Assembly: GCF_902362185.1 (NCBI RefSeq)
Contig: NC_044504.1
Location: 33,156,702-33,220,701 of the forward strand
DNA from: Chanos chanos
Taxonomy: Eukaryota
DNA: 64,000 bases
Direction of reading: 5' to 3'
A program made the position numbers and the translations under genes. The notes under the pieces are model-generated. The model worked only from the letters and a program-made list of their open reading frames with translations. It had not been told where the DNA came from and searched no databases. Below are positions 1 through 27,416 of the stretch, one piece after another. Position 1 is the first letter of the stretch, and each line of letters opens with the position of its first letter.

Positions 1-370
1 GCAGAAGTGGTGTTCTTGATGAAGTTGCCCCATAGGCCATCCTTGAGGTGGACTGTGCCCTTGAAGAGGTTGTTTGAGCACAGGAGGTCAAATGAAGGGT
101 TGGATCAGATATAGTAACCCATACATCTGTTAGATCAATGTGCTGCTTTCGGGGATCAGAGGGTTGTGAAATTTGATTTATCAATGGTTCACAAATCTTT
201 TTGGCCTGTTTTGTGACGAGGTCTTCTAATTTCTTTTTCACAAATTCATCTGTCTTTTCTTGTTGATAGCCTTCATACAGAGTCTTGTAATATGGCTTGA
301 AATGCAAACGAAAACAAGAAATCACCATCCATAGGACTGAGATTGCTGCTAGAAGGCCCAATCCGATGAG
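1..370 (-). CDS. CALHM/FAM26-family paralog A, exon 2 (3' end truncated by window start; stop lies ~6-8 nt before position 1)
   Basis: Near-identical to copy B exon 2 (position 1 corresponds to 3709). Minus-strand acceptor ttttcaag|CTCATCGGA gives LIGLGLLAAISVLWM...KPYYKTLYEDYQQEK.., the CALHM TM4 plus C-terminal helix pattern. Confidence 0.7.
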
Positions 371-524
371 CTTGAAAAAGATTAACAAACATTGTTACAA
401 ACTCCATTTGTAAATGCATTTTGGCCTGTTATTCCAGGTATTTCACAAAAGATTATTTTCTACTCACTTTTCAGTCCAGTACATTTTTCTGTCCAATCAT
501 TATGCAGCTATTCAGTATACTTAC

Positions 525-1001
525 ACGTGAATCAGCCTTATGTAGTCTCAGAGTTTCAAGCTCCTCAGCAGATTGTTTCTCTTTACAAGTGATTTGCTCT
601 TGCCCAGCTGTGGCAGTATGGTTTGTGGTCATAAGACACACGTACCAGTCTCCATCCATAAATGCTGTAACAATCCATAGTGTCCCAACAGTGAAGGCTT
701 TAAGGAGACATCTGAAGATAGTACATGAGTTGTAATTGATGTGGTTTCTGCATTGACCTTTGACACAGATTCTGATGGACAGCCCATCAATGATGAGTGT
801 AATCAAGAAAAGTATGATGAATGGTGCAAGCATGTAAACAAAGCAGACTGCATAGTTTTTCACTGGATCACATGGACATTCAAATTCCAGTTTGAACAGA
901 TACTGAAATATGACAAAAAGAATAACAAATGCAAATGCACTGCCTGTTAGCAATGCGGTTAGTACTTTGATGGTGAACTCTGGATGTACTGGACGTGCCA
1001 T
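525..1001 (-). CDS. CALHM/FAM26-family paralog A, exon 1 (ATG 1001..999; 159 codons; donor CGT|GTAAGT)
   Basis: Protein MARPVHPEF...FKLEFECPCDPVKNYAVCFVYMLAPFIILFLITL...AFMDGDWYVCL...LHKADSR. It matches the CALHM1 N-terminal architecture (FDFNCPC ... LLAPPLVLFLLGL ... TLLDGKCFLC). Canonical GTAAGT donor, phase 0. Confidence 0.75.
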
Positions 1002-3699
1002 TTTGATTAAACAGTATTTAGTACTATGTCCTGAAAATGTTGTCTACAAGTTCTTGACCAAAAAAAGAAAGAAAGAAAGAAAAGCATAAGTCAAACGGAA
1101 ATCTGTTTCATGCCACAAAATTTATCACAAAACCTCACATGTTGTTGTAACAGTCCCTCTGTTTATGTACAGCATTCTCAAAAGAAGTCCATTCACTTTC
1201 TGTTAACAAAATAGATGGTATAAAATGCAAGGACAGGTTTAGTGAAATGAAAATAACCAGCAGTCCATGATGTTTTGTTAAAATCCAATATTAGTCTATA
1301 ATGAAAAAATCATCTGAAGTAATAAAGCTACAAAATGCACTTGTCCAAGAGAGACACCTCTTGAGCATTTCTGCTCCAAAATTCAGATGGTCCTGAAGCA
1401 TTGTAAGGACTGGGAATTAAATAATCCCAAATCCTGATATCCTGATTGGATAAAAAAAAAGGTGCAGCTGACTGGATAATATCCTGCACAAGAGATTCTC
1501 CTCACAGATAGCGCAATCTAAAAATGTTTTGTGCTGCTTTTATACTGTCTATGTATACCTCAGAGGAGGAGCCTGCGATGTTTACTGCAAACTTTCTACT
1601 AACTCTTCTTGCATATTTCATAAAGAGACCTGGGAAACAAAAAAAGAAAACCGACAGTTTTGATTCTGCGGTGCCCACAGTTAGCTAAGTTCCTGTTCTG
1701 TGAAGTACAGCTTTGCATTGTGTTTTTTCTACAGGTGCATCTCAGTTCATTCCCACATTCAAGCCCAGACCTTGTCTTACATGTCTCGGTGTAAAAATCT
1801 GTTGTCTCACCTCGATGATCAAAAAAGTGCTGACAACAGGCTGGAGAAAGCAGAGACCGAAAATGGGAAAGGCTGTGGGAAAGGTTGGGGTAATACTGTG
1901 GTAAGCAAAGAAGGAGACTCAGCACATGAAAAGATAGACTTTCTATCTGCTCCAGCATCTCATTGTTCAATTCTTATATTGCGGACTATTTTTACCACAA
2001 AAGATAGGCACATGTGAAAAAAAAACACAGTATATCTGTTTGTCAGAATCTGTTCTAGTTTTCGGCTGTGCCCGTGGTTACAGAGCTTCCTGTCTCACGG
2101 TCTGCAGCATTTAAAAACTTGCATTTGGTCCACCAGTTATATCAGCTTAACTTTTTCCCACGAGCATTCAACCACGGGCCTTTATCTTCTTAACTTTCTC
2201 TAGCTTCCACACCTTCTAGAGATAGTCGTTATATGTTTGTGGCTATGAGCAATCTCTAAGAATGAAGCTATGTGTGATTTTTAATTAATTATAGACTAGA
2301 ATTTACTACATACTACAGTGCTTAAAAACGTTGTTGTTTTTTTCATATTTCAGGTATCCATCCAACACTCCTGCAAATGTCATAAACTCAACTATTAGGA
2401 GGTTAAATGTCACCAAGAGGTATAAATTTCCTGAGGCTCACTGTCTTTTTGGAAAAGGACTGTTACATTTTGTGCTAGAGATGCTTGGGTGGGTAGGAAT
2501 TATTCACCCTTCTACTTCACCTGCAACTTCAGGATTTTTATATGTTGGGGGAAAAAACATGAAGGTCTTCGACCTTGCATTGACTATAGCATGCTAAGAT
2601 CTCACCATGGAGTTTTGTTACCCCATTATATACAACTACCCCTTATAGATCATACTTAATGCCTCATAATGATTTAAAGTATGTTTCTCTGCAGGTTTGT
2701 CTTTGAAAGCTTGGTGGTGTATAAGGTCTCTCCACAGCAGAAGAGAAAGGAACCAAACCAGAGAGTTGTGTCTCTCCTTCACCAAACTCCTTAGGTGACC
2801 TGAGGGTCATGTTTGGCATCTAGAGGCAATAAAATGGGTGGTCTACTTAAAGACAAGGAGTCCTGTTAATGACTTGAGAATAAGAATATGAACCTAATTA
2901 ATGTACATGAGAATCTAGGGACCTAATAAATATGTACAGAAAGTGCACAATAGGGGACTTTAGGCTCTACAGAACAGCCCCAGTCAACCAACTCTGAGCT
3001 GAACTTAAAAGATTCTTTTTTAATGATATTTCTGTTTGTGTAACTATATGTTGTTGAATTTTAAGGGGTAATGAGTTATATTTCTGAACTATGTTTCTGA
3101 TACAGTGCTGTGTGTGTTGATAAAGGACCTGAAAATTTCTTGGTGATGCATATTTTAACAAAAGATGCAGAGTTGGAGTAGAGGAATTATAAATTATGAA
3201 TTTTATTTATATGGCAAAAAGAGAAAAGATAGGTGTTTGACTACAAAAAGAGGAAAAAAACAAGCAGTTAACAAATTATTTGGCCAAAAATCTTCTTGAG
3301 CAAATCATTAATCCGCACATGACCCTGATAATAGTAATTTTGAGCACATGTTATATACTTCAAATGCATCCAGTTCCAGTACGTCATCAATAACTAAACG
3401 CCGTTTTTTGAAGAAATAATCACTTATTGAGGAACATATACAGACTGATTTGTTCTCGTACAGAAAGACAGAGGTTCTGCACTTGCACACAAGGTGAGCT
3501 CACTTTTCCAACACAGAGCACCAAAGTTTACTCTCCATATTCAGACTGGTTCAAGTGTCTTGTCTGTGGGCATGTATTCCTGTGTTCCTTTCCAGGTGCA
3601 GATGGTTTATTTGTTCCTTAAATACCTACACTTAGTCTCTAAACCATGAGTTGATCACGCAAGGCATTCCAGTCAAAGTACATGAGAGTGTCTGTTGGA

Positions 3700-4077
3700 T
3701 CATGACGGCAGAAGTGGTGTTCTTGATGAAGTTGCCCCATAGGCCATCCTTGAGGTGGACTGTGCCCTTGAAGAGGTTGTTTGAGCACAGGAGGTCAAAT
3801 GAAGGGTTGGATCAGAGAGAGTAACCCATACATCTGTTATGTCACTGTGCTGATTTGAGGGATCAGAGGGTTGTGAAATTTGATTTATCAGTGGTTCACA
3901 AATCTTTTGGGCCTGTTTTTTGACTAACTCTTCTAATTCCTTTTTCACAAATTCATCTGTCTTTTCTTGTTGATAGTCTTGATACAGAGTCTTGTAATAT
4001 GGCTTGAAGCGCAAACGAAAACAAGAAATCACCATCCATAGGACTGAGATTGCTGCTAGAAGGCCAAATCCGATGAT
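3700..4077 (-). CDS. CALHM/FAM26-family paralog B, exon 2 (includes stop TGA 3702..3700)
   Basis: Acceptor ttttcaag|ATCATCGGA. Encodes IIGFGLLAAISVLWMVISCFRLRFKPYYKTLYQDYQQEKTDEFVKKELEELVKKQAQKI..., the CALHM C-terminal half. Phase 0 with exon 1. Confidence 0.75.
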   Translation of the reverse strand: MIGFGLLAAISVLWMVISCFRLRFKPYYKTLYQDYQQEKTDEFVKKELEELVKKQAQKICEPLINQISQPSDPSNQHSDITDVWVTLSDPTLHLTSCAQTTSSRAQSTSRMAYGATSSRTPLLPS

Positions 4078-4221
4078 CTTGAAAAAGATTAACAAACATT
4101 GTTATAAACTCCATTTATAAATGCATTTTGGCCTGTTATTCACAAAGGATTATTATCTATTCATTTGTCAGTCCAATACATTTTTCTGTCCAATCATTAT
4201 GCAGCTATTCAGTATACTTAC

Positions 4222-4722
4222 ACGTGAATCAGCCTTATGTAGTCTCAGAGTTTCAAGCTCCTCAGCAGACTGTTTCTTCTTACACATGACCTGTTCGTGC
4301 CAAGCAGTGGCATTATGGTTTGTGGTTGCAAGACACACATACCAGTCCCCATCGATAAACGCTGTGACGATCCAGAGTATCCCGGCAGTGAAGCCTTTAA
4401 GGAGACATCTCAAGATGGTGCAACAGTTGTATTTGATGTGACTTCTGCACTGACATTTGACACAGATTCTGATGAGCAGCCCATCAATGGTAAGTGTGAT
4501 CAAGAAAAGTATGATGAATGGCACAAACATGTAAACAAAGCAGACTGCATAGTTTTTCACGGGATCACACGGACACTCAAATTCAAGTTTGAACAGATAC
4601 TGATACACTACAAAAAAAAACACAAGTGTAAATGCGCTGCCTGTTTGTAATGATTTCATTGCTTTGTCACTGAAGTGTGGATGTTCTTGATCATGATGCC
4701 CTGGTTGCTCTGGATGCACCAT
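4222..4722 (-). CDS. CALHM/FAM26-family paralog B, exon 1 (ATG 4722..4720; 167 codons)
   Basis: MVHPEQPGHHDQEHPHFSDKAMKSL...FKLEFECPCDPVKNYAVCFVYMFVPFIILFLITL...AFIDGDWYVCL...ADSR|GTAAGT. About 85% identical to copy A except a divergent, His-rich N-terminus. Confidence 0.75.
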
Positions 4723-6109
4723 TTTGATTAAAAGAAGCGTTCACAGCTTGCTCCTGAAAATGTAGCAGGCAAATATTGTTTCAAAAAAAAGCACGTCATA
4801 TATGTCAGAATTTATCACAATTCATCATACTTATCAGAAAACATCATTCACATTGTTATAATATAACAGACGTTCAGGTCTTGCGGAGTACTCCAAAAAT
4901 AATTCTATACACCTTTAAAAGAAGGATTAATAGCATAACAGCAGAATGTGAGGGATGATGATGATGAAGTTCACATGGACGCTAAAAATCCAGCTAAAAA
5001 TAAACTCTGGAAACTTATGAAAAATTCAAAATTAAAAAGTATACTTGCCACAAAGAAACACTTCAAGAGCCTCTCTGCTGTAAAATTCAGATGGTCCTGA
5101 AAAAATGTTCTGAGAATTACTGAGAATTAAATTCTCCCGATTCAGAGATGGCAAAATGAGCAACGGGGGACCATGTGAGTGCCCAGTAAGAGAATACTTT
5201 GTTCTGCTTTTATATTCTCGACATGAGAGGCGGAGCATAGAAGATTTGCCACAAATTTTTCATGTAGTCTTTCTTTTATATACATCATGCCTTGAATGTA
5301 AAAGAAAAAAAAAACTGGTCTGGTTTTCTGCTGTGGGCATTGTAGCCTCTGCTCCTTGTTTACTCTGCAGGTGCATCTTAATTCATTCTCACGGAAGTAT
5401 AAGCCACAAGGTCACATGACCTGTTATAAACGTGATAACTCAATCTGTTAAAACTGCCTTTGATCTTGTCTGCCCTCTAGAAATTGCTGCAATCTATGCA
5501 GATGAGTGGTCTCCATGAATGAAGCCATCCGTGATTTTAAAGCTAATTGTACTTTGGCATTTAAACTACTTATACAGCTTTTTCATATTTAAAGTATCCA
5601 TTCAGTCCTTCTAATTTCAACAATTGTGCAAATATATGAATTTTAGCAGTCACAGTAGGTGGCTAGTGCTATCAGCAATCATTGAAGAACAAAATCATTT
5701 AAAGATTTTTTTTTCAAACTAACTTGAGATACTGGAGGAGCATTAGAGAAGATTCTGTCTTTTCCCCCTACTGGGCAGGCAGATTGCAGAGACCTGTTGA
5801 GTAGCAAACTGCTTCATGCAATAATAGACTAGATTCATGACTAGATGTATGCAAAGGCAAAGTTTGAATAACATTTTGTAAGGGCATGCATCAAGGATAG
5901 CAGCATGTTGTAGCCTGACAATGTTCTCAAGCTCACAACTTGTGATAAAAGCATTTTGCATTCACAATGCAAAAAATATTCTTTTCCTTAAAGAGTAATC
6001 ATGCTGTTCTGGTGCGAGTTCCAAGAAGAAATCGGTTCTTAATTCCCAGCCCTCCGTGTGATTAAGCTATTGGTGGTGTATGTAGCTATGGTGAGGAAAG
6101 AATCGATTG

Positions 6110-6425
6110 ATAAAAGAATTAGACTTCTTTTCTGACAAATTCCTGTGGCAATACTTTCACTATAGGGATCCATAGATCAGACTGAATGAAGGCTTTCACT
6201 TTCTTCTTAAGAGTGCAGTTTGGGCGAGGCTTCTAAGGTTGCCTAGAGTGACCCCTGGTGGCACAAAGAAAAACTGCAAAACAATACAGTGCAGTGTGAC
6301 AGTGTGGTCAAAACCAGTGTCACTCCTTCCACAGTTTCTCCAATATGTCATGGCCAGTTAAACAAATATATGTCTTAAGAACAGTACATCTGAAATACGA
6401 GTGAGCATTTTAATCAAGTAATAAT
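6110..6425. repeat. Dispersed repeat, copy 1 of 2 (second copy at 18555-18800)
   Basis: Shared blocks: ttcctgtggcaatac..tccatagatcagactgaatgaaggct; aaaactgcaaaacaatacagtg; gatacatctgaaatacgagtgagcattttaatcaag. These match 18560-18800 in the same orientation. Confidence 0.5.
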
Positions 6426-6899
6426 AGTGGCTATTTGGCGTGTCATGGTTTTTGAATTGTATAGCAGGTAGGCGTCAAGAACATATATATGAAATAGTTT
6501 AGCTTTTACATGGCGCTAAAGATTTTATTAAGATCTTTATTTTTAAGAATTTTATTACTGAACCTCAGGAGAACTTACGTGTTTGACTGATAGTGTCATG
6601 TAACACCAACTGAGTTCAACGAGCCACCTGTAGCTACTTTCCCGTTGTTGTCCTTGTTGTTGTTTTTCTCACACTGTCTTTCCTGGAGCTTTACAAGTGC
6701 TGCTCATCTCTGGGGCTTATCTTTACACCCATCCTATCTGCCAAACATAAAAGTCTGTGCAGGCATATGAAGGCAACAGCTATATACCAAGAAAGATTTT
6801 TTTAATGTCAGGCTTCCATTCTGAGTCATACTTGGCTGAGGAAGCAGTGAGGCTGCAACATTGTTACAGCTAATCAGCTGCCGCGGTAAGTTTGTAACA

Positions 6900-7080
6900 C
6901 ATCAAATGAGTCCTGTTATTTTTACCTCCATCCTGAAAAAGGATCTGTCATTTATGCTAGTTCTGCTGAAAGTGTTTCTATGTGGATTACCCGTCTGACA
7001 AGCTGCAAGACACATGTCATGGGTTGCTTGTCGGGTGTCCAGTGGGAGAAACGAAACTCTCGGATTTGCCAACCGTTATT
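6900..7080. repeat. Dispersed repeat, copy 1 of 2 (second copy at 20990-21200)
   Basis: tttctatgtggattacccgtctgacaag...gtcatgggttgcttgtc...gagaaacgaaactc matches tttctatgtggattacctgactaacaag...gtcataggttccttgtc...gagaaatgaaactt at 21090-21190. Confidence 0.5.
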
Positions 7081-7317
7081 GCCTACGTAAAAACTTTCTG
7101 TACTAGGCTATAATAAAACACACCGATACAGGCAGAAAATATGTACAAAATAGATACAGTGTAAATTGTAGAATACAGCAGTCAGTTGGTTGAATTCTTC
7201 ATTCTACACATGGTTATGTATAAAGGTTACATTAGCACAGCTACCCATCCTTAGTTTGAATGAAACAAAGTTTGTAAATTATTACATTTATAAATCATTG
7301 TTAAATATGGAGAATTA

Positions 7318-7550
7318 CAGAGCCCCTAAAGTCCCAAGACGTGATTTTTTTTTTTTTTAAATCTTGTGTGCACAAGTTACTGTCTTGTGGGAACAAGTTA
7401 GTATCTCGTGCAAACAAAATAATTATCTTGTGCAAACAAGATAGATAATTATCTTGTGCAAACAAGATAGATAATAACTTGTTTTCACAAGATAATTATC
7501 TTGTTCGCACAAGAAAAAAAGTATCACCTTTCAGGACTTTAGGGGCTCAG
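7318..7550. mobile_element. MITE-like non-autonomous DNA transposon (Tc1/mariner-like, TA-flanked) with about 17-bp terminal inverted repeats
   Basis: Left end TA|cagagcccctaaagtcc and right end ggactttaggggctcag|TA are 16/17 inverse-complementary. The 233-bp body holds nested palindromic subrepeats (cttgtgcaaacaagatagataattatcttgtgcaaacaag...). A poly-T run follows the left TIR. Confidence 0.6.
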
Positions 7551-7735
7551 TAGAGATTAGCTTATTTGCTAGAAAACTATACTTTCATAATAATTTAATC
7601 AAATGAGTAAGGAAGAGGTCTACTAGCCAAGATCAATTATTAGCTTACTTGCATAAGCATGATTAAATGAATAGTTTGTTAGCCTGTTATCTCTAGAATG
7701 AAGCTTAGGAAAACATTTGAAATGCTGACACTCTA

Positions 7736-7772
7736 ATGATGATGATGATGATGATGATGATGATAATGATGA
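7736..7772. repeat. (ATG/GAT)n trinucleotide microsatellite
   Basis: gatgatgatgatgatgatgatgatgataatgatga. Confidence 0.9.
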
Positions 7773-10356: not shown

Positions 10357-10731
10357 TTAAGAATAGGACTCCTGTGACATTAGTGGTTCTTCTGATGAAG
10401 ATGATGCTGAAGTAATTTCTGGTGTTGAAGAGGTTTCCAGATGAAGGATTGGGTCTGATATTATAACCCACGAATGTGACTGATCCAGTGATTGATTTTG
10501 TGGATCAGTGGACTGTGAGATTTGTCTCCTCAGATTATTTAAATGCCCTCGGCAGATATTTTCAGCCTGATTTTTGGCAATCTCTTGTAATGTCTTTTCC
10601 AGGTGGGCAGCAGTCTCTTCCTGTAGATAGTCTTCATAAGCACTCTTGTAAAACGGTTTACAGCACAAACGGACACAGGAAATCACCATCCATATGACCG
10701 AAACTGCTGCTAGAAGGCTCAAGCCAATGAT
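10357..10731 (-). CDS. CALHM/FAM26-family paralog C, exon 2 (includes stop)
   Basis: Acceptor tttttcaag|ATCATTGGC. Encodes IIGLSLLAAVSVIWMVISCVRLCCKPFYKSAYEDYLQEETAAHLEKTLQEIAKNQAENI... Confidence 0.7.
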   Translation of the reverse strand: MIGLSLLAAVSVIWMVISCVRLCCKPFYKSAYEDYLQEETAAHLEKTLQEIAKNQAENICRGHLNNLRRQISQSTDPQNQSLDQSHSWVIISDPILHLETSSTPEITSASSSSEEPLMSQESYS

Positions 10732-10859
10732 CTTGAAAAATATAAATAAACATGGTTATGAAATCCATTTTTTAAACAATTTTACTTGTTATTCCAGGTT
10801 TATAGCATTATTATTTATTCATTTTCCATCAAATCCTTTTTAGCATTTAGTATACTTAC

Positions 10860-11339
10860 ACGTGAATCAGCCCTGAGGTCTTTCATAGTTGCAACTTCAT
10901 TGTTGGAAGGTCTCTCCTTACAAGCCATTTGCTCCTGCCAGGCTGTGATGTTGCCATTGTTGCTTTGTAAACAAACATACCAGTCTCCGTCAATAAACGC
11001 TGTAATGACCCATAGTAAAACAGCCACAGAGGCTTTCACGAGACGGCTACAGAACATGCAGCTGCAGCATGCTTGTCCGCACTGAGAATTTAAACATCTT
11101 GTACAAATCCTCACGAACAGTTTGTCAGTGAGAATTACAATGCAAAAAACAGTGACGGACGGAAGACCTATGTAAACCATGCAGACCTCCAAGTTTTTTT
11201 GTTTGTCACATGGACATTCAAACTCCAGTTTGAACAAGTACTGAAGAATGACAAAAAAAATAACAACTCCAAAAGCGCTGCCTCCCTGTAATTTGTTCAT
11301 CATTTTAGTGGTGAAGTGTGGATGTTCCACAGACACCAT
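10860..11339 (-). CDS. CALHM/FAM26-family paralog C, exon 1 (ATG 11339..11337; 160 codons)
   Basis: MVSVEHPHFTTKMMNKLQGGSAF...FKLEFECPCDKQKNLEVCMVYIGLP...Cys-rich loop CTRCLNSQCGQACCSCMFC...AFIDGDWYVCL...ADSR|GTAAGT. Confidence 0.7.
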
Positions 11340-13909
11340 TTTGAATAAACCAAGAGTGTCCTCAATTCAAAATGTGGCACGGAAATTATTGCTTCAAAAC
11401 AGCAGACTGGGATCAGATGTGGCACTCTGAAGGAGTAAGACCTTAAATAAGTAGACCCAGATGGTGAAGGTGAATATATATGCATGCATGTATTTGTTTT
11501 TGTTTTGAATTTTTTGTAACACGTTGCTTCCTCGTTTTTTACATAACCCTTAAGCACATAGCCCTAAGGAGATTGTTTGTGTTATTTACCGGTGCCTTAT
11601 CACAAAACCTCCATGACAAGGAAGTGATGTTCCTGAAGAAACTAAGTATCCACGGTAGTAGTGTCTGTGTCCACTCAGCATTTAGACACAAATCCCCAAA
11701 TCCAGGTGAAAGGATGGCTGAGGTTTAAGACCTTCGGGTAACATGTCTGTAAAGTTTCACCATCTTCAGTTGATGCTTTAAGTGTATGAAGTTTTCACTC
11801 TTTCTGTTTGGCACCCTCATTGCTGATAGTCATTGGCTTGTGGAGATCACATAGTTAAAATTCCTCTATCTTTGCGATAGTGACTATGACCTTTCATAGA
11901 GGGTTCAAGCCCGCTTCACCGATACTGTGACCCACTGACACTGAAACAAGAGAAGAGCTTGATCTTAACTAAATAAAGATATAGAATCTTAATTGGTGAT
12001 TTTAATTAAGTATAAAACACCTTTATACTTGATTGAGAGACAAAAAAAAAGTTAGAGGAAAATGATCCGTAGTGCATGGATGTAGTTAATGATAGCAAAG
12101 GAGTGGAATGCCCCGCACTGAAAATATCTGAAAGTTTTAAAGTGAAAGTAAAAACACTTTGGCAGATCTTTCATTTTTGCCACCAAAGTACTCTTAAGAT
12201 TCCAAACACATAATTTCATACGTGGGGTGTTTTACATTAAACTATTATTGGGAGCAGCTGCCAAAGTTGTGACCCAGACACATAAAGCTGAACACAAAAT
12301 ACCTGTGAGAGGAAAATGCATGGCATTTCTATTACTCTCATTCAGTTCCAACTAAATTTCTTTTGTATACAAAGTTGATCCTTCTGAAAAAAAGCTTATG
12401 CCTTGAGATGGGTGCTATTTCACAAAATCCTATGCTTCTTTGTCTAAAAAGGCAGGCATGTTTTGTGTTACCCTCACTCGTAAAAGAGAAGGCTCACTGC
12501 TACCTTTGTCAACTGAACTGCATCAGCAGAAATGTTTTATACTGTGCTTATCTCTGTTCAATTCTGAGAGAGTGAGATCTGCTGAGTTCTTATACCTTTA
12601 AGTGTAATGGATGTATAAAGGGTTTTTTGTTAGCAGTCTTGGCCTCTCTCCAAAGACTAACATTAGCAGCAACAAGGCATTAGGCATAAAACCCAATAAA
12701 CCAAACCAGCTATCTACAAACTGATAATGCCCCCTCTGCATTCACAACAGCCAAATAATGTAGAACATAAGCGTGTTATTCCTGTTATACAGGGACTCTT
12801 GTTTCCAGGAATGAAGAGGACCATCATGAAGCAAAAAAAAAAAATCTTTATTTGAAAAATCTTTATCTACTTACAAGAAAAGGCATGAAGTGCCTTATGT
12901 ATTTATATTTATACATATATATAAAATAATGTTATAATACAGTATTATATTATAATACAGTACATATTGTATAATGAAAAAAAGTCAGTATGGCATTCAG
13001 TATGGCAGTGTTACTGATGAAGATCAAAGATTTCAGAACAAAGAACTACAATGTCTGTTAGGATTATACATGGTGATTTTTGATGCTGTTTCAGTTTTAC
13101 ACTGTAGTGCTGAGATTCCTAATCCTTTACGCTTGATTAGGACCAATAACTGCTTCAGAGGCTTTTTACAAACATTGCTTCTGATATGATCTCTGAGAAC
13201 TACAATAGCCTGTACATGATTGTAGAAGCTGTTGCATCAACCAGGAAAAATACTTTAGCCACTCAACTGTGGGGACAAGACCGTTCTTGGACACCACTCA
13301 TTAATTAAACGTCCTGATGTATTGCATCCCCATTAACTGCTAAGCCAGAAAATGTGAACTCCCAAAATGGGAAATACCAGAGTGAGGGTCGTGCCTATGT
13401 TCTGTATAATGCAGACATATTCAGTTCGATGTTATGTAGAGTGTCCAGTAATATGGATGAGTTTGTGTTTGGGATTTCCATGAGAAGAAATAAAGCAAAC
13501 GTTGCAGAAAGTTCAGCAAAACCTTGGTGGTAATGAGAAGCTTAGACTCTGTACCAATCAGCAGTCGTCAAGGTAACTACAGGAACAGGATGCAATTCCA
13601 TGCCACAGATCTAGTCAGTGTCGTACATTGTAAATATTCAGTTCCTTTTTTGACAAAGTTCAGAGTTAAACACATAACACGATTTCACAATGTGAAGTCA
13701 CTGTGTGACCAACAAGAAGAGACCTTAGAGAGCCAGGCAGAGGGCAATGCCTTAACAGTGTATCATGTTTAAAGTAAAACTTATTTTTCCTAACACAGTG
13801 GACTGTTTTAAAGTTTCAGTACACACAAGATAGTGTATGCTTTCTGCATGTTGTCAGGGAAAACAGGGGACTCAGTTGCGGACTCACTGATGAATAAATA
13901 AAATGTTTA

Positions 13910-14420
13910 TTGTGCCAGGCAGAAGTCTTTCAATACACTAGGCAGAAAGCGGAATCCAAAAAACAAGCAGAGGTCGTACCACAGAGCAGTCAGAGGGAGG
14001 CAAACAATCCAAAACGGCAGACAAAGGCAAAATCCAGAGACAGGCAAATGTTCAAAAGCAGGTACAGGGCAAGGCAGGCAGGCAGAAGAGGCAAAATCCA
14101 ACAGGCAAAAAGTCAAAAAAACAGGCAGAGGTCAAGAACAGAAGACAATCAGGATAACAAAAGGCTAGGATGACACACTGTGGAAGGCAGTACGAACTGA
14201 CAAACAAAGGGTAGAACAGGCAGGGTTTAAATAGACAGACTAATTACTACTTCAACGAGACACAGGTGAGCACAATAAGTGAGGGGCGGGGCCCGGGCAC
14301 ATGGAAGACCAAAATAAACAAAAGCACATGACAAAACCAAAAACAAATGACAGCTGTCACCAGACCTGACCAGCAGGGGCACAATAGAGAGCAGGTCACG
14401 CAGGAACCCTGACACATGTT
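13910..14420. repeat. Low-complexity A/G/C-rich (caggca/aacagg-type) block, candidate interspersed repeat
   Basis: Reiterated caggcag / acaggca / aaacagg motifs. A similar composition and motif set recurs at 16190-16640. Spurious K/R/Q-rich ORFs are produced on both strands. Confidence 0.35.
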
Positions 14421-16189
14421 GCATGTTACCATGTCTTTTGAAATACTGCTATGATTTCACATAAAAATGTGAGATTGTGATACACTGAATGTGAAATTGT
14501 GATCAACAGTATTACAAGACTGAAAGGAATTTGTATGGCCCTTCCAAAGATCCTTCATGTTGAGTTTGAAACACTTAAAAAGCTTTACACTTTGTTCACA
14601 TCCTAAAAGACTTTTTTTTTTCTCACCAAATCAGACATGTTATCCTGAAGTTGTGGTGCATTCTATTGTCATGGAACGTTTTCCAAATGTTCATCTCACA
14701 GATATTTTTGTTCTTAAAAGAATATGTTTAGAATCCTTGTGTAAAATACGTTCTTTCTGATATAGAACCCAATAGCTTCTTTATGAGACATGGATCAACA
14801 AAAGAATGCAGAGTTGGAGTAGATGGAAAATGCTTAAGTTTATTTTTAATGCAAAAGTGGTGCAACAGGCAGGCAATTTAAAAAGCTCCTCGGCAAAAAT
14901 CCTTCCTGAGCACATCACATTTATTCCCACACAGCCCTAGCTACAGTTATTTAAGGCGTGGCATCCCGAGGTTGTGCAGTGTCTTCTTGTCAAGGAATTT
15001 ACAAAAAAAAAAAGTCACTTGTTCAGGCTGTCAGCAGATTCACAGTTATCAAACATGTAATCAGATGTTAAGTAGATGGAATCAAGTGGTGAAGACATCA
15101 CATGGTTTTGAGTTTGTTTCGCTTTGTTTTGTTTTGTTTTTATGACTGCCAGGCTACATGCAGTGTTTCCTTAACATAAAGCGTGTTTCCGTAAAGTGAA
15201 TATGTGTGGATGTGCATGCCATCCAAGTTAAGTGGGATTTTTCTATTTTGTTCTTTTAAGATAATGATACCGCACATATCTATAGAATTATCCACTGTAA
15301 TCCATATAGACCAGATGAGCCCTCTTTTTCTGCCCTAAAGCCAGCCCACTGACAGACAACAGTACATAATAACATACCATGCAAAAATGTTATACTGAGC
15401 CTTTTCAAAAATCCCAGATACTAACTCAGAAATAACCCAAGTTTTAAGTAGCCGTCACCTGTGGTGACATGCTCATTTTTCTCTCACATTGTTTTTTTGG
15501 GTTTTTTTTTCACTGATTTCCTTACAATGCTGCTCACCTTAGAAGTGACAAGAACTTAAATGTATATGGTAAAATAATCAGGTGTTGGTGTGTGAGTGCA
15601 ACAACTACATAACATTAATTCGTCATTCAATACTTGATGACAGGCCACCATGACAATCGCAGGAAACCCACATCATCATGGTGAAGCTCAAAATCATAAA
15701 CTAGGGCTATTCAATTACAAATTCAGTTTGGCGGGATTTCAAAACTTGGCTTTGTTCATGCGCCAGACATGTTTGGTTTTCCTCATCAAAAAGGACACAA
15801 GCTATTGCGTTGCTTATTCTTGGTATCCTACCTCTCAGTCTCTCTCTTCTTCTGTCACATTATACCTTGACTATCCTACCAGCTCAGACTGTTTCATCCA
15901 GTTTATTTTCTTTTTAGTTACTCTTGTGGGTAACCTCAAGCAAATGAATGGAAAGTGCAAACTGGAGCCAAAAGAGGATGAATGTGATGTGAAACAGACA
16001 GGTGAAGAAAACATATAAAGAGACATATGTTGGAAGTACATGAATAATATGAGAAATGAACAGCTAAGCACAATGTGTAGGGAGAAGTAACTCAATGAAC
16101 TCTCCTACAAAAGGTATTTGATTACCAAAATACAAAAAAAGAAAACCTCATATCCTTTTTGGAACAAGTATTTATCAGTTCAAACTCAC

Positions 16190-16640
16190 CCTATGGTACA
16201 ATAATTGAACAGAGTGCATTTATAACTGTCAGGAAATCACCAGGGGAACAGGACACAAGTGCATGGACACCAGATTTATTACCAGACTGTAGGCACGTAA
16301 ACTGAACAGGAGCAGGTTTGTTACAGGCAGGTTTGTTTACTTGTCGGACAGGATCAGCGTGAAACAGGAACAGGCAGATGCAACACAGGACTGAGGACGG
16401 CAAACGAACAGGATACCTGGGACTATCAGAAAGCGAACAGGTTCAATCAGAAGCATCAAACAAACCGCTTAGCGTACACCATGGCAAGTGTAGACTTCGC
16501 ACTGAGGGAGTGAAACAGAGGTGAATATATAGAGCAGTAAATGAGACAGAGTGAAAACAGGTGAAGAGTGAACAGACCGGTGATTAGTTAGCTGGAGACT
16601 CCGACTGCCGAATGGTTGGAGTCAGCATGGGAGGGGATGA
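16190..16640. repeat. Low-complexity cagg/aacagg-rich block resembling 13910-14420
   Basis: Motifs aacaggagcaggtttgttacaggcaggtttg, gtgaaacaggaacaggcagatg, gtgaaaacaggtgaagagtgaacag. Confidence 0.35.
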
Positions 16641-18289
16641 GGTTGTTTCAGTAATACAGGAAATTCACAACTCTGTACACATTTTTAATACATAAAATGC
16701 ATGCTATGTTAGTATTATTTTGTCAGCAATAAGACACACAATTTTTTTTGAAGCATTAATCATTCATTATTGAATGAATGAAGACTGATTTGTTTACTCG
16801 CAAGGAGACAGTGATATCTCATTTAAAAGCAAAAAAATGTATTGAACAAACATAGAGCATCAAAGCATAGTCTTTATCAGAGGTGCCCAAATCTAGCCCT
16901 CTAGAAAATCTAGAAAAGTGATCTCTGCACACCAGCATATCACAGCATGCAATATAGAGCAGATCACAGCAGCCCATTCAAATAACTAATTAGAAAATCC
17001 ATGAAACTACATACGAAATGACAAAGGAACAAAAAATAAGCACAAATTTTTACTTTCTCAAAGCGTGACAACTGTGCTGCAGATGACTGTCTTACTGAGC
17101 CCTTTGTCACATGATGCTTCAGAACTGGTTCCAGGTATCAACTGGTTCCAGGTCCCAAACTTCACTGTTAGTGAAAAAATGTAGCTATGGTGCCCCTCTG
17201 GGTAATTAAGGCTCAGTGAGGATAATGAGGTTGAACACAGAGTCCCTTAGAGAGATTGTGGGAGACAATTCTCAGCCTGGGCCAGATATGGCAGAGAATC
17301 CAGCCACACTGTTCACCTTCTTAAAAAAGAGACAATCAAAGTTTTCAGAGTCTGATGCAAGGTAGGTTTATTGTAAGAGCTCAAAGTGGCATACAGCAAA
17401 CCAAGCCGGTCCCGGGAGTGGCAGAAGCAACATTCACAAAGCACCAATCCTTATAGTAATTTCTTATCAATGTCAGACACTGACTTCAGTTGGGATGCAC
17501 TTGCTGGTTACGTCTAGCAAATTCCCAGACAATTCTGTTGTGCACCAAGGTTTCTGTTGAATCCATATTTTTAATTGTAACAATCAGAATCTGTCACTAA
17601 TATAGATTGCCCTCTTCCTTACACAAAGATGGCTCACACCATGGTACCTTGAATGACTGACCATCTGCACTCACTGCACAAAGACGAATTCAGAGTACCT
17701 TTTCTATTCCTCCATTCACAGATCACTTTTTTTTTTTTTATAAAAGAAGACCTTCATGCAGTTACTTTAATACAAATGAGGATATGGTTATGAAATCTTA
17801 ATACAAAATGATTATCAATACAAAATGATTGTTGATTAACACACAAAAAATGGCTACATAACTGTTACAGTGTTTTCATAAACCAAAGAAACATTTTATT
17901 TCTCCGACAAAATACTTGGAAAAGGCCATAAGATCTATTAAATCATTTTTATATGTTCTCCAGCACAGGAACTCCTTATACCCCCACTAGAACACTCTGC
18001 TCTACGACCTCTGGTCAACTGACAGTCCCCTCACTTCGGGGACCCGGCAGCCGCTCCTCTCGACCACGCCTCTCCTCCGCCATTGCCCCGGTGGTGGAAC
18101 GACTTCCCTCATACAGTTAGGACTGCGGAATCTCTTGCCATCTTCCACAAGGGACTGAAAACCCACCTCTTCGGAACCCACCTGTCCCCCACTGCCTAAC
18201 CTCCCTTTCTTTACAAAAAAAAAAAAAAACACCTTGTCTTGTATCTGTGTTTGTCATTCAGTGTCAATGTCTTCCAGGGGCGCAATATG

Positions 18290-18400
18290 AAGGGTAAATT
18301 AATGCTTAGTCTTATTGTGATCTCTGCTTATGAGGTAATAGGATCTTATTGATGCACTTATTGTAAGTCACTTTGGCTAAAAGCGTCTGCCAAATACCAA
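18290..18400 (+). repeat. Teleost interspersed-repeat (SINE-like) tail containing the conserved core tgtaagtcaCtttggCtaaaagcgtctgcCaaat
   Basis: This matches the widely dispersed fish repeat motif ..tgtaagtcgctttggataaaagcgtctgctaaat... An oligo(A)15 run lies just upstream at 18217-18231. Confidence 0.45.
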
Positions 18401-18554
18401 ATTGTAAATTGTAATTGTGAATACCAAACCACACCCAAGAAAGAGAGGCTCTGCAAATCCATGAAAATCTGTGGAATTTAAGCGTCCAATAAAAGAATTA
18501 CACAAAGTATGACCATTCACTCAAATGTTTATGCTTTAAAAAGTAAAGAAAAGA

Positions 18555-18800
18555 AGATTTCCAACTAATTCCTGTGGCAATCCATAGATCAGACTGGATG
18601 GAGGCTCCTACTTTCATTTTTAGAGTCATTTTGCATCAACTCTCAATGCTATCTGCAGCGACCTCTGTAGGCAAAAAAGCAGAACTGCAAAACAGTGTGT
18701 CAAAGTAAAAGTCTCTCCTCCTGAATTTTACCAATATGTCCAAAATCAATTAAAGTAATAGCTTCAGAATGATACATCTGAAACACAAGTGAGCATCAAG
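18555..18800. repeat. Dispersed repeat, copy 2 of 2 (pairs with 6110-6425)
   Basis: See 6110-6425. Shared blocks ttcctgtggcaatccatagatcagactggatggaggct and gatacatctgaaacacaagtgagcatcaagaattttaatg. Confidence 0.5.
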
Positions 18801-19583
18801 AATTTTAATGTGTCTTTAAAATTATGAGTTGTACAGCTGTACAGTTGTACAGTTATACAAGTACATGTCATAATTACGTATTTTGATTTTCATTACTTAA
18901 AACTCATCTTTCCACAAAAATCGTTTATATTCCCTTCGTGAATTTGAATAGTTTTTGGTTTTGTGTAAGTATGTCAGCATTTACGGTTAGTCATTTCTTC
19001 TCTAGAAATTGCTTGAGCAGAGAGCAAATTGGTCTTTTGAGCCTTATGTCACTTCACATTGAGGTACATTTTCCATTTCATGTTTTCTGTATATCTGTAC
19101 ATACAGAACCAGACCTGCTGTTTTATTTCCACCTGCACACGCAGTGGTGATTTGCAGGCAGCTCCTCAGGTGTTCCTTTACCCATGCACTGAACTGATGT
19201 ATGATTTATCCTCATATTGTCATAGTAATACATAGGCGCTTTTATCCATTTTATCCATATACTTGTGTGATTACACATTAAACATCCTCTTATAGGAGAA
19301 ATGAAAAGTCCAACTAATGACATGTAGGTTAACACAAATGGTCTGTTAGTACGTATGCTTTTTAAAGGAGTACCTCCCTTTGTAATTGTGTGGCAGTCCA
19401 AACACCTTGCCCTATCAAATTAGCATCATCTGTTAATAGACAGCACCACAAGACTGTTAGAAGGCAGTTGAAATCAGAAGAGAAACATGCAATGCTACCA
19501 CTTGTTTCTTGCTGTGGTTTAAAGAGTCAGACTGTTCGGGTAGAGGCCTTTTCTGTGAGACCGTTACAGGTATACTGGGCCTC

Positions 19584-19913
19584 TCAGACTGGGACCGTCA
19601 GATGGAACGTCGGGTCCGATATTTTACGCCATACGTCCTCCACGGAAGCTCCCAGCTGTCGGTATATCTGCTGTTGATTGTGTCCCTGTGTGTTGTCTTG
19701 CTGCTGATTTTGAAGTTCCTTCAGTGAGTTTTCACTGGCCCTTTGAACTGTTTCTGTCGCTTGTTCTTGCAGTCTTGCCTCCAGAATGGCACAAGTCTCC
19801 TCCTCCAAGTACATCTCATAAAGAGACTTGTAGTACAACTTGCAGCGAACAAGCAAAGAACTCATCACGGTTCCCAGAACTGAAATCCCCAAAATCAGCC
19901 CCAGGCCAATTAG
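19584..19913 (-). CDS. CALHM/FAM26-family paralog D, exon 2 (includes stop)
   Basis: Acceptor ttaaccag|CTAATTGGC. Encodes LIGLGLILGISVLGTVMSSLLVRCKLYYKSLYEMYLEEETCAILEARLQEQATETVQRASENSLKELQ..., the CALHM TM4 plus helical tail. Confidence 0.7.
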   Translation of the reverse strand, partial: LIGLGLILGISVLGTVMSSLLVRCKLYYKSLYEMYLEEETCAILEARLQEQATETVQRASENSLKELQNQQQDNTQGHNQQQIYRQLGASVEDVWRKISDPTFHLTVPV

Positions 19914-20132
19914 CTGGTTAAACAGAAAAAGGGGGGCGGGGGTGCAAAAAAAATCCGTTAGCTTTGTGAATATGTTGTTTTTCAAATATGATCAATTTAC
20001 TGAACAGAACAGCATAGTGAAAGTGTTTTATATTGTAGTATTTGCTATAACATTTATATTAGGTTTACATTTACCTTAGAATCTGCCAGTTCCACTACAA
20101 TTTTTCTTTTCTCTTAGTATCGGTGTACTTAC

Positions 20133-20699
20133 GCGTGACTCACTTCTGTATTTTCTGATGGTCTCGCTCTCTTGCGGGGAAGGTATATCCTTACAAAGAA
20201 TTTGTTCATTCAGGTCTGTATTATTGCTTTTAATGGTTTGCATGCATACATACCAGTCTCCATCAATGAATGCAATTATAACCCAAAGTGATCCAACAAA
20301 AAAGACTTTAAGTACGTGTTTACATATCATGCCCAGATAGTACCACCCTTCTTCGCCAAAACCAGTTGGGCAGAAGCAGTATCCATGGGCACAACAGCAG
20401 CACTCAAAACTGTGACAAAATTCACTGGTGCAGCATCTTCTGTCTGAGCGAATGCAGCACCTGCAGACGAAACACTGGCACACCTTCAGGAGAAGTGGGT
20501 CCATTAGAATGAGAAAGAAAAAGAGTGCGCCAACAGGTAAGACCATATAAAGCCAGCAATGCCATTTGGTTTCCTCTGGTGACAAGCAGGGACAGCTGAA
20601 AACGAACTCGAAAAAAATAAGCGTAACCACAATCAGCAAAACAGTTTTCACCGTCATCTTCTTCAGCCGTTCAGAGATAAGAGGTTTAGTAGGTGGCAT
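20133..20699 (-). CDS. CALHM/FAM26-family paralog D, exon 1 (longest ORF ATG 20699; 189 codons; a second in-frame ATG 14 codons downstream is an alternative start)
   Basis: MPPTKPLISERLKKMTVKTVLLIVVTLIFFEFVFSCPCLSPEETKWHCWLYMVLPVGALFFFLILMDPLL... A Cys-rich loop of about 50 aa (CQCFVCRCCIRSDRRCCTSEFCHSFECCCCAHGYCFCPTGFGEE) is followed by ...AFIDGDWYVCM...SESR|GTAAGT. Confidence 0.7.
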
Positions 20700-20989
20700 G
20701 TTGGGTAATAATGCTGAAAAAATAAAAAGCTTGGAATAGCTCGTTGGTCGTTCCCCACAATATGGAAAGTCCTCTGTTTTTAGCTATCAGAAGACTTCTC
20801 TGGAAATATTGAAGGAGGAGGGTTATGGAGGGTGTTACTTTAGGAGGCGTGTCCACGTGATCAAAATCAGTATCCAGCTTCACGGATAATTCAAAAAATC
20901 ATGTTATCACACTCAACCGCAAATTCCTCTTTTAATGCTTAAGTTGTCTCTGTCTCTGTGGTCTTGGGATGACATCATAGCTCCTCAAC

Positions 20990-21350: not shown

Positions 21351-23220
21351 AGACAGAAAAGACGCCATGCATGTATCCACTAAGTTCTGCACTAAAGTAG
21401 ATACAAATGCAATAAAACAGTTTGTTAGGGGTTGGGTTCTGTATTTCAACATTTCAGTGCAATTACCACAAAACCTCAAGCAAAATTATTAGTGGTGTAG
21501 AGATGATGTGAAAAGTCCTCTATTTAATACCATAAAGCAACAGAAAGTCCATTAAAGGTGGTTTGTTTCTGGGTCAACAGGATATGCATGAGAGCAGGTT
21601 TTAATGGAGTTGGGTGTTAAACCAGTATAACACTAATTATTTACATTTGGTGCAAACTTTCCATTTCATCTTTTTGTGTATATCATACCTCAAACTAAAA
21701 AAGGGGGGGGGGGGGACAGGGAAAAAATCAGTGCCTTGGTTTTCTGCAGTGCCTTCGGTTACCTAAGTTCCTGCTTTATATCCTGCAGCTCAACACACAG
21801 TCTTTGTTGTGCAGCATCAGTATTTCTCATAGAACCTAAAGCCTCAGGCCCATAGCTTTAAGTAAAAAAACCTTTGACCTTCACTACTCTCCAGAGATAG
21901 TTATTATCTGTTTGTGGAGCTGACAGATCTCTGTGAATGAAGCCAAATAATTTTGCAGTCTATCTTTTTCTTTTATTTAAATATGAATATTTGCAGCTGA
22001 TAAAACATAAAAAAAACATCTCTCTTCAGAAGATCTATGGTAAAGTGGATCCTGGTCTTTTCTCCTCCTCATTTTGGATGATCAGAAATTTGTGAGGTGA
22101 CATCAGCATAGATTTGTTTGATATTGCTAACCGCATTTACTGAAAATGCATGAAATAATTTCTTGTTTTACACGTTTATTTTTCTTACATTATTATTTAT
22201 ATATTACTACTTTATATTTTAAAAACATGTTTTGATTTCTAATCAAAAAGGCTATAAAAAGTTTTCAGGACAGAAGATCTGTAACACTGTACCACTGAAC
22301 CCAATCTAAATCCACAAGGTTTCTTTGTCTTTCTCTTACACTGTGCTCCTTTTGTGGCAGAAACAATACCTGATACAAACAACGTATTGGTATCTCAGTT
22401 CCACTGTGCACATACTGACACTCAGATTACTTGATGGATTGAATGATTATTTATTAGGATTATGACTGAATGATTATTATAAACGATTATTTGGTTTGAA
22501 TCATTTACCTCCTTTTTGCTGAAAACTACAGATGGACCTAAAGTGACATTTTGCAAAACTGTTACTTAGTTGTGCATTATGTCAGGATTTCTAAAAGCAC
22601 GACAAGTCAAACCCTTGTGCGAAACACAAATTTGAGCAAACTGCCCCAGATTGACTGGAGTAGAGAAATAGCAGCCCTCTTTAGACAAACCGTCCTCATC
22701 AACCCCGGCATTATTTTTCTTTTCAATCAGCCAATAGGCGTCATTTCAATCAGCCAACGGGCATCATTTCCCTGTAAACCAAATTTACAGGAAAAGAAAT
22801 GTTTGACTAATCAAGTTTAATAGATTTTACGGTCAGCATGGATAACTGGCGGAGAAAATATCTGTCTTCGCTTGTGAAATATCCTCAACACAGTCTCAGC
22901 TCCTTTAAAAATCCTATCTGCTGTTTCAGGTCAGGCTAACGCTAACGTTGATTACTACCCCTTAAAGCCATGTTCATTTGCTGTCTGAACTCAGTGAGCC
23001 AACCATTAGGAAAAATTTTATTTGTGTAGAATCACATCTACACAGACAATTGTTTGTAAGTATCACAGAGGTGTGAATTAAAATGACTTGCAACCTGTAG
23101 ACAAGGGCTGGAGTTTGAGGGTTGTGTTTATACCATTAATGTCTGAAGTTAGCCTTGTGCAAACAGATTCTCTGTGTTATTATTCACAGGCTTTTGTTTT
23201 TGTGTGTGAGCATGGGCTTG

Positions 23221-27284: not shown

Positions 27285-27416
27285 GTAATGACTGAATTTT
27301 TTTATACGGGACCATATTCTGTAAATGTATTTGTAGTCATTTGTTGTTTGTGTTGAAAACAAGCGTGAAGATGCACTGTTTGTGTGTTTGCATCAGTTTC
27401 TGTGCACATCCTCTGC

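Follow-up and report, generated by a model that had tools for sequence, protein, structure and literature searches.

The start of the window, as we call the whole 64 kb stretch of Chanos chanos DNA that was analysed, carries with a probability of roughly 0.8 four intact, divergent CALHM genes in tandem that represent an unnamed, fast-evolving teleost lineage lying outside CALHM1-6 and having its sister group among sharks and rays. The genes share the same orientation on the minus strand and were located at positions 1-1001 (copy A), 3700-4722 (copy B), 10357-11339 (copy C) and 19584-20699 (copy D). Their parts are as follows, with the basis of each assignment in brackets:

525..1001, minus strand: copy A coding exon 1, encoding the N-terminus, TM1-TM3 and extracellular loop 2 and ending ...ADSR before GTAAGT (ORF and donor; Pfam)
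371..524, minus strand: copy A intron, 154 nt, GT..AG, phase 0 (94% identity to the B intron)
1..370, minus strand: copy A coding exon 2, encoding TM4 and the C-terminal helix, truncated at the edge of the window (comparison with B)
4222..4722, minus strand: copy B coding exon 1 (ORF and donor; Pfam)
4078..4221, minus strand: copy B intron, 144 nt (donor and acceptor)
3700..4077, minus strand: copy B coding exon 2, through to the stop codon (an AATAAA follows 89 nt further 3')
10860..11339, minus strand: copy C coding exon 1 (ORF and donor; Pfam)
10732..10859, minus strand: copy C intron, 128 nt (donor and acceptor)
10357..10731, minus strand: copy C coding exon 2, through to the stop codon (acceptor and ORF)
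20133..20699, minus strand: copy D coding exon 1, in which the TM2-TM3 loop is expanded and cysteine-string-like, with 15 Cys (ORF and donor; Pfam; Hemibagrus orthologue)
19914..20132, minus strand: copy D intron, 219 nt, acceptor AACCAG (donor and acceptor)
19584..19913, minus strand: copy D coding exon 2, through to the stop codon (acceptor and ORF)

These models agree with the initial annotation in that four minus-strand genes share a common structure, with phase-0 GTAAGT...AG introns of 128-219 nt. Exon 1 ends at the same codon in all four copies (...SR, phase 0), where TCACG(T/C) is followed by GTAAGT. The introns of A, B and C end in TTTTCAAG and that of D in AACCAG; the initial annotation had proposed an ...A(D/E)SR donor before GTAAGT and ttttcaag/aaccag acceptors. 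The intron site is kept family-wide, as ...S(R/K/Q)VS... was observed at the equivalent position in 17 of 25 truncated homologue predictions. The encoded proteins are 292 (B), 284 (C) and 298 aa (D) long, while copy A lacks about 2 codons and the stop relative to B at the window edge. In A, B and D, acceptor-like sites were observed 14-37 nt 5' of the ATG, and the transcripts probably contain an extra 5' non-coding exon; the genes are therefore described here as having two coding exons each and not, as before, as two-exon genes. A tblastn search of the whole 64 kb window with all four proteins recovered these four genes and nothing else, whether whole copies or fragments, and extra degraded copies in the array were accordingly rejected. 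The array may extend past coordinate 1.

The spliced conceptual proteins scored 67.5 (A), 70.5 (B), 82.5 (C) and 35.8 bits (D) against the Pfam profile PF14798 (Ca_hom_mod), all above the cutoff of 25 bits and covering about positions 24-245 of the 252 in the profile. In a sequence search of the PDB only CALHM chains were returned below E=0.8, the sole non-CALHM match being 7ane_d at E=0.85. The motifs put forward in the initial annotation were recovered in part. CPC and DGDWYVC are invariant across A-D, but F-x-F-x-CPC is exact in D only (A-C read L-E-F-E-CPC) and (L/F)(L/V)AP is exact in A only, with just the proline kept across copies; DGDWYVC is, on the aligned sequences, a signature of the divergent clade and not of canonical CALHMs.

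Residues invariant in canonical CALHMs that are kept in A-D comprise F44, C46, P47, C48, P64, W117, G125, C130, C162, S184 and G188 (CALHM2 numbering), so that the TM2 proline (P64) and the TM3 tryptophan (W117) are retained, as is Ser/Gly at the start of TM4. All four cysteines of the disulfides described for CALHM, C46=C130 and C48=C162 (PMC13183375), are present in A-D, the CPC pairing with ...YVC and ...xCK; in other aligned clade members three of them were found in 28 of 28 and the fourth (C48) in 27 of 28. Both extracellular disulfide pairs are thus predicted from the cysteine positions to be conserved. Replaced in all four copies, on the other hand, are the following residues that are invariant in CALHM1-6: Y56 (V in A-C, H in D), G57 (C), G72, A113-P114, A131, Q185 (R), W189 (L/F), W220, E227 and F251. 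Mutation of the Y56 equivalents has been shown experimentally to affect gating in CALHM1 and CALHM6 (PMC13183375). One N-glycosylation sequon per copy was found in extracellular loop 2.

Structure prediction with AlphaFold2 on a 107-sequence alignment resulted in a pLDDT of 82.5 and a pTM of 0.67; with an alignment of the four window proteins only, the pLDDT was 45 and the model unusable. When compared to the PDB with Foldseek, the best 37 matches were all CALHM1/2/4/5/6 or CLHM-1 chains (probability 1.0, TM 0.39-0.68) and the next match had E>1. The predicted structure has the CALHM fold of four TM segments, in which TM4 is long and leads to a C-terminal helix. Four hydrophobic segments were detected in A, C and D and three above cutoff in B, where TM1 falls below it. 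Pfam scores, predicted fold and disulfide cysteines together uphold the initial assignment of the array to tandem CALHM/FAM26-family paralogs. Each protein would be expected to assemble, like the solved CALHMs, into an 8- to 13-mer ring via contacts of the TM segments and C-terminal helices, with a wide pore lined by the N-terminus and TM1. Neighbouring paralogues may also co-assemble; CALHM2/4 do so in two solved structures (8rml and 8rmm), and heteromers have also been reported for CALHM1/3 (PMC13183375). The Cys-rich TM2-TM3 loop, most extreme in D with 15 Cys, would be cytoplasmic and could act as a multi-palmitoylation or metal-binding module tuning membrane association or gating.

The array has been built by duplications of three ages, as shown by graded sequence divergence: the D-type is ancient, the A/B pair is recent, and C predates that pair. 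Copies A and B are 82% identical in protein and 88.6% identical in DNA over 993 bp, close to the ~85% estimated at first, and C and D are, as had also been noted, far more diverged (52-54% protein identity between A or B and C, 37-38% between D and the others). Synonymous divergence (dS) is 0.23 for A-B and 0.83-0.96 when either is compared with C, and it is saturated in comparisons with D. The corresponding dN/dS values of 0.41 (A-B), 0.36-0.43 (C compared with A or B) and 0.24 (C-D) indicate purifying selection on the genes. For A-B, dS is 0.41 in exon 1 versus 0.06 in exon 2 and the intron is 94% identical; since exon 1 shows roughly 7 times the synonymous divergence of the intron and exon 2, the 3' half of A/B looks to have been homogenised by a putative gene-conversion tract. 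An orthologue of copy D in the catfish Hemibagrus (P0001) shares 49% identity with it at 99.5% bootstrap, and the Cys-rich loop is kept there too. Of the birth-and-death process proposed in the initial annotation, tandem duplicates of different ages are evident from the graded dS, but as tblastn returned neither pseudogenes nor fragments in the 64 kb, only the birth half is visible here.

The array had further been described as lying next to an immune B7-family gene. A B7/butyrophilin-like IgV+IgC gene is located at 43.4-44.7 kb, ~23 kb from the array, but a PARP/VIT/VWA gene at 24.5-39 kb lies in between, and the B7-like gene was therefore rejected as an immediate neighbour. The immune association suggested for the array is likewise not supported. 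An ISRE-consensus match was found ~960 nt upstream of D, one of 3 in the window versus 0.6 expected, which we do not regard as informative. Rfam and tRNA scans gave no matches.

In order to place the array relative to CALHM1-6, homologues were collected by exhaustive HMMER search of a representative library, which returned 469 family members; a word-index search with copy C had missed the family. In a distance-based neighbour-joining tree (200 bootstraps), support was 100% for A+B, 95.5% for A+B+C, 99.5% for D+Hemibagrus and 93.5% for the teleost clade. The teleost and chondrichthyan clades were together separated from canonical CALHM1-6 in 95% of replicates, while monophyly of the canonical proteins reached only 69%, in a tree with long branches where CALHM2/4/5 were represented by human sequences only and teleost canonical CALHMs were absent. 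With phmmer the array proteins scored -4 to 52 bits against canonical CALHMs, compared to 101-242 bits among human paralogues and 81 bits between human CALHM5 and nematode CLHM-1, with CALHM6 and CALHM2 about equal as best canonical match. By hhalign, the clade profile scored 125 against CALHM6, 112 against CALHM3, 98 against CALHM4, 97 against CALHM1, 94 against CALHM2 and 91 against CALHM5, that is 91-125 versus 138 for the lowest canonical pair.

The label "CALHM5/6-like" given to the genes at first is hence not supported by the tree, within its limited sampling, and the clade falls outside all six subfamilies. We consider it unlikely that the genes are instead lineage-specific, fast-evolving co-orthologues of CALHM5/CALHM6 (FAM26E/F) whose outside position is a long-branch artefact, even though long-branch attraction could push a fast-evolving CALHM6 offshoot outside the crown. 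Such an origin would be in line with CALHM6 being the best canonical match between profiles (125 versus 91-112) and often by phmmer also, with the best scores of the unnamed intermediates P0147 and P0134 being against CALHM6, with the NCBI label "CALHM6-like" on some clade members and with two features common to CALHM2/4/5/6 and not CALHM1/3, namely a C-terminal W-x-x-I-S and a TM2-TM3 loop that is Cys-rich and contains a CC motif. The margins of CALHM6 over CALHM2/3/4 are however small, the names of other clade members are "CALHM2-like" or uncharacterised, and the divergence from CALHM6 exceeds that of any canonical paralogue pair. CALHM5/6 grouped with the divergent clades in 0% of replicates, rising to 22.5% once the two intermediates were included. 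These observations favour a separate lineage.

Two further readings concern the state of the genes rather than their ancestry. In some heterologous assays CALHM2, 4 and 6 have produced hardly any current or none, and the array might encode CALHM-fold proteins that no longer conduct alone and serve as modulatory or auxiliary heteromer subunits or as membrane scaffolds. Replacement of CALHM1-6-invariant residues, including Y56 with its gating-relevant equivalents (PMC13183375), and a C-terminal tail that is nearly neutral between A and B point in this direction. The pore-forming scaffold is nevertheless fully conserved (TM1-TM4, disulfides, TM2 proline, TM3 tryptophan) and exon 1 is under purifying selection with a dN/dS of 0.30, and we consider this reading fairly unlikely. 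It is highly improbable that any of the copies is an unexpressed, unprocessed pseudogene that died recently and still looks intact. The A/B dN/dS of ~1 in exon 2, calculated from only 21 substitutions, would fit, and because the A/B upstream regions are unalignable past ~40 nt from the ATG, one of the two copies may have lost its promoter. Against this, the reading frames are complete (282-298 codons) with canonical GT-AG phase-0 introns, every conserved cysteine is intact, overall dN/dS is 0.24-0.43 and the catfish orthologue of D retains the unusual Cys-rich loop.

The array is an ordinary multigene family and belongs to what is probably an undescribed CALHM subfamily. The clade is not described in the papers returned by literature searches, and a study of how CALHM6 domains evolved (PMC10768655) was uninformative on it. 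We tentatively propose, as a possibility with the odds against it, a seventh, undescribed gnathostome CALHM lineage that tetrapods lost while cartilaginous and ray-finned fishes kept it and expanded it repeatedly, in which the cytoplasmic cysteine-string TM2-TM3 module of up to 15 Cys would confer lipidation- or metal/redox-dependent control of the pore and tandem paralogues would heteromerise with diversified properties. Few large-pore channels are as poorly understood as the CALHM channels, half of whose six human members are considered "dark" (PMC13183375). A well-populated fish clade that keeps the structural scaffold while swapping residues invariant in the six named subfamilies, one of them at a tested, gating-relevant position, offers natural variation for telling structural from gating determinants. 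Source names of clade members are mostly "uncharacterized protein", otherwise "CALHM6-like", "CALHM2-like" and even "samkC" or "golgin"; given such inconsistent naming, definition of the subfamily would improve fish genome annotation.

Among known systems, CALHM6/FAM26F and the CALHM2/4/5/6 group share with the array the Ca_hom_mod domain, the four-TM fold, CPC, both disulfide pairs, the proline of TM2, the tryptophan of TM3, a cytoplasmic TM2-TM3 loop with Cys and a C-terminal W-x-x-I-S/T. The human CALHM4-5-6 genes also lie in a tandem cluster. Identity is however ~20% over aligned profile columns, and phmmer scores are 12-52 bits compared to 101-242 among human paralogues. The array proteins lack Y56, G57, A113-P114, A131, Q185, W189, W220 and E227 (CALHM2 numbering), DGDWYVC is specific to their clade, and the clade fell outside the CALHM1-6 crown in 69% of replicates. 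CALHM1/CALHM3, the taste-cell ATP-release channel, resembles the array in fold, disulfide architecture and neighbouring paralogous genes, and its reported heteromers provide a precedent for co-assembly of tandem paralogues (PMC13183375), but similarity by phmmer is weaker (7-28 bits) and the Cys-rich loop and C-terminal W-x-x-I-S motif are absent. Chondrichthyan proteins (Mobula, Pristiophorus, Heptranchias, Heterodontus and Hemiscyllium) form the sister clade to the teleost A-D clade (95% jointly), are similarly far from canonical CALHMs and carry the names "CALHM6-like", "CALHM2-like" and "uncharacterized"; they are separately monophyletic (98.5%), with DGDWYVC and the Cys-rich loop less developed (4-5 Cys). 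C. elegans CLHM-1 shares the fold and is the best PDB sequence match for copy B (38.7 bits, E 7e-9), but it is the invertebrate orthologue of the whole family, and its top score reflects the conserved TM1-TM3 core only and no specific relationship.

Six-frame ORF listing, together with direct reading of the strand, identified four gene copies (A–D) lying in the same orientation on the minus strand at the start of the window, each with two coding exons:

exon 1 1001..525, exon 2 370..<1, minus strand, copy A, incomplete at the window edge, which removes about two codons and the stop
exon 1 4722..4222, exon 2 4077..3700, minus strand, copy B
exon 1 11339..10860, exon 2 10731..10357, minus strand, copy C
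exon 1 20699..20133, exon 2 19913..19584, minus strand, copy D

The first coding exon is long and in all copies spans the N-terminus to extracellular loop 2, ending at a phase 0 donor in which ...TCACG(T/C) is followed by GTAAGT. The acceptor of exon 2 is TTTTCAAG in A, B and C and AACCAG in D, and both the translations and an AlphaFold2 model confirmed that this exon starts immediately ahead of TM4, as the initial annotation had placed it. Introns measure 154, 144, 128 and 219 nt in A, B, C and D, and the conceptual proteins 282+, 292, 284 and 298 aa. No further copies or fragments were found in the 64-kb window by tblastn with all four proteins as queries. A and B are 82% identical at the protein level, A or B and C 52–54%, and D and the others 37–38%. 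The DNA of A and B is 88.6% identical over 993 bp, a similarity that ends near the ATG. Acceptor-like sites, composed of a pyrimidine tract and CAG, are located 14–37 nt upstream of the ATG in A, B and D:

1002-1040, minus strand, acceptor-like site
4723-4760, minus strand, acceptor-like site
20700-20715, minus strand, acceptor-like site

The counterpart in copy C is mutated. The sequence suggests an extra, unannotated 5' non-coding exon upstream of the A, B and D ATGs. The interval separating B from C contains a 21–26 bp tandem repeat (7361-7514).

All four proteins cleared the Pfam gathering threshold of 25 bits for Ca_hom_mod (PF14798), scoring 67.5 (A), 70.5 (B), 82.5 (C) and 35.8 (D) bits. 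A PDB sequence search with B returned matches that were all weak (top 38.7 bits), to CALHM chains and one non-CALHM chain (7ane_d, E=0.85). The AlphaFold2 model, computed from a 107-sequence homologue alignment, had a pLDDT of 82.5 and a pTM of 0.67; in a Foldseek comparison against the PDB the first 37 matches were all chains of CALHM1/2/4/5/6 and the C. elegans family member CLHM-1 (probability 1.0, TM 0.39–0.68), and the match after these was already at E>1. We conclude that A–D are CALHM superfamily members. The family call made from the sequence was thereby borne out, and its core interpretation, that CALHM-family paralogues stand here in tandem and each have two coding exons, is correct.

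An exhaustive HMMER search of a representative library recovered 469 homologues, of which 201 fell under 1e-10 and 14 under 1e-30. The top homologues were teleost (Hemibagrus, Megalops, Prochilodus, Danio, Danionella, Poecilia, Arapaima, Scleropages, Salmo, Alosa, Micropterus and others), the best of them nearly all labelled 'uncharacterized protein LOC...' or 'hypothetical protein' and one 'CALHM6-like'. Database names were inconsistent or wrong among homologues of the clade, including P0004, P0009, P0083 and P0037 ('samkC', 'golgin A6-like', 'CALHM2-like', 'CALHM6-like', 'uncharacterized'), and the names 'samkC' and 'golgin A6-like' were probably driven by low-complexity C-terminal tails.

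A neighbour-joining tree (244 columns, 200 bootstraps) was calculated for A–D, 30 representatives and 13 references from the canonical, named subfamilies. Bootstrap support was 100% for A with B, 95.5% for A, B and C, 99.5% for D with the catfish homologue P0001 from Hemibagrus, 93.5% for the teleost clade that contains A–D and 98.5% for a chondrichthyan sister clade with members named CALHM6-like, CALHM2-like or uncharacterized. The teleost and chondrichthyan clades were separated from canonical CALHM1–6 and two unnamed intermediates at 95%; monophyly of canonical CALHM1–6 reached 69%, and a grouping of the divergent clades and intermediates with CALHM5/6 was found in 22.5%. With this low value and the 95% split, the CALHM5/6-like label originally attached to the array is unsupported. 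Score comparisons gave the same picture as the tree. The scores of A–D with canonical CALHMs all lay between -4 and 52 bits, compared with 101–242 bits among human paralogues and 81 bits between human CALHM5 and nematode CLHM-1. In profile-profile comparison the teleost clade scored 125 with CALHM6, 112 with CALHM3, 98 with CALHM4, 97 with CALHM1, 94 with CALHM2 and 91 with CALHM5. The A–D clade could conceivably have been derived from CALHM6, which gave the highest of these scores, but we consider this unlikely: the lowest-scoring canonical pair, at 138, lies above every teleost-clade score. We conclude instead that A–D belong to a separate, fast-evolving fish lineage. No description of this subfamily was found in the searchable literature, and A–D add new members to a known family, in an unnamed fish-specific subfamily.

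A–D were aligned with the 13 canonical references (CALHM2 numbering), of which human CALHM2/4/5 are 100% identical to PDB chains 6lmu, 6ytk and 7d60 and CALHM1/3/6 were taken from the database. F44, C46, P47, C48, P64, W117, G125, C130, C162, S184 and G188 are retained in A–D, and Y56, G57, G72, A113-P114, A131, Q185, W189, W220, E227 and F251 are replaced. Pan-CALHM patterns include F44, Y56, I61, P64, W117 and the disulfides C46=C130 and C48=C162, and mutating the Y56 equivalent alters gating (PMC13183375). With Y56 and other invariant residues replaced, gating may be different or conduction lost. Between its two loop-2 cysteines each copy carries exactly one N-x-S/T sequon, consistent with an extracellular loop. 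The motifs initially proposed held in part: CPC and DGDWYVC are invariant, while F-x-F-x-CPC is exact in D only and LAP in A only.

Cysteines in the TM2-TM3 loop number 4 in A, 6 in B, 8 in C and 15 in D. The D loop (20260-20500, minus strand; residues about 72–118) is expanded, includes a CCCC run and resembles a cysteine string; it is kept in P0001, likewise with 15 cysteines.

Nei-Gojobori estimates were made for pairs of copies. A and B differ by a dS of 0.23 (dN/dS 0.41) and A or B from C by 0.83–0.96 (dN/dS 0.36–0.43); dN/dS for C and D is 0.24, with dS against D saturated. D is orthologous to the catfish gene P0001 (49% identity), and the split between D-type and ABC-type genes therefore long predates the A/B/C duplications. 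The comparison of A with B is mosaic, with dS 0.41 and dN/dS 0.30 in exon 1, dS 0.06 and dN/dS of about 1 in exon 2, a 94% identical intron and a switch in divergence near A coordinate 555:

1-555 versus 3708-4250, minus strand, low-divergence A/B tract (3' end of exon 1, intron and exon 2)

Synonymous divergence differs roughly 7-fold between the two parts, for which gene conversion of the 3' half is the best explanation. The 'death' half of the birth-and-death process envisaged earlier is unsupported, as the four copies are intact and tblastn with the A–D proteins found no pseudogenes in the 64-kb window. In 17 of 25 truncated, unspliced fish homologue predictions ...S(R/K/Q)VS... stands at the equivalent site, which is read-through of a GTnAGy donor and makes the intron position family-wide. 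In Prochilodus, Scleropages and Poecilia, homologues on a single contig carry neighbouring locus tags or LOC numbers, suggesting tandem clusters in other fishes too.

Upstream of D the following genes were located:

24500-39200 (about 24.5-39 kb), plus strand, multi-exon PARP4-like gene with PARP catalytic, VIT and VWA exons, next upstream of D
37849-39138, plus strand, proline-rich repeat exon of the PARP4-like gene, 430 codons open, 'SAPPPPLPPMRLSAPS'-type repeats
43418-44724, plus strand, B7/butyrophilin-like gene with IgV (V-set, 50 bits) and IgC exons
45845-47539, plus strand, TRIM gene with RING, two B-box and coiled-coil exons

The IgC exon scored 26.7 bits for C2-set_3, slightly below the 27-bit cutoff. 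The B7-family gene described as lying beside the array is about 23 kb away with the PARP4-like gene intervening; it is thus non-adjacent, its proximity is uninformative on function, and an immune association of A–D is not supported. We take the order B7-H4-like, TRIM45-like and then a possible MAN1A2-like N-terminal exon (58797-59117, no Pfam match) to resemble that of human 1p13-p12. An ISRE-consensus match, GAAATGGAAAGT, is situated at 21656-21667 (minus strand), about 960 nt upstream of the D start codon; matches number 3 window-wide against 0.6 expected, too few for interpretation. The PARP4-like gene region contains (CA)n-type microsatellites and a minisatellite translating as 'HHIYKPLPSHLQTLTITFTN' repeats (27300-27750; 28221-28583). 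Window scans found no Rfam families or tRNAs.

By homology with solved CALHMs, each gene would encode a four-TM subunit with cytoplasmic N-terminus and C-terminal helix and with extracellular loops stapled by two disulfides, and subunits would form a ring in which TM1 lines a wide pore. The cytoplasmic TM2-TM3 loop may undergo multiple palmitoylation or bind metal. Co-assembly among the neighbouring paralogues is plausible given the precedent of CALHM1/3 and CALHM2/4 heteromers (PMC13183375; PDB 8rml, 8rmm). The clade is loosely linked to the CALHM2/4/5/6 group, and not to CALHM1/3, by a cysteine-containing TM2-TM3 loop and by a C-terminal W-x-x-I-S/T motif (WVTISDPTLHL, against WKDISVPTLL in CALHM4 and WQQISSLYTF in CALHM6).
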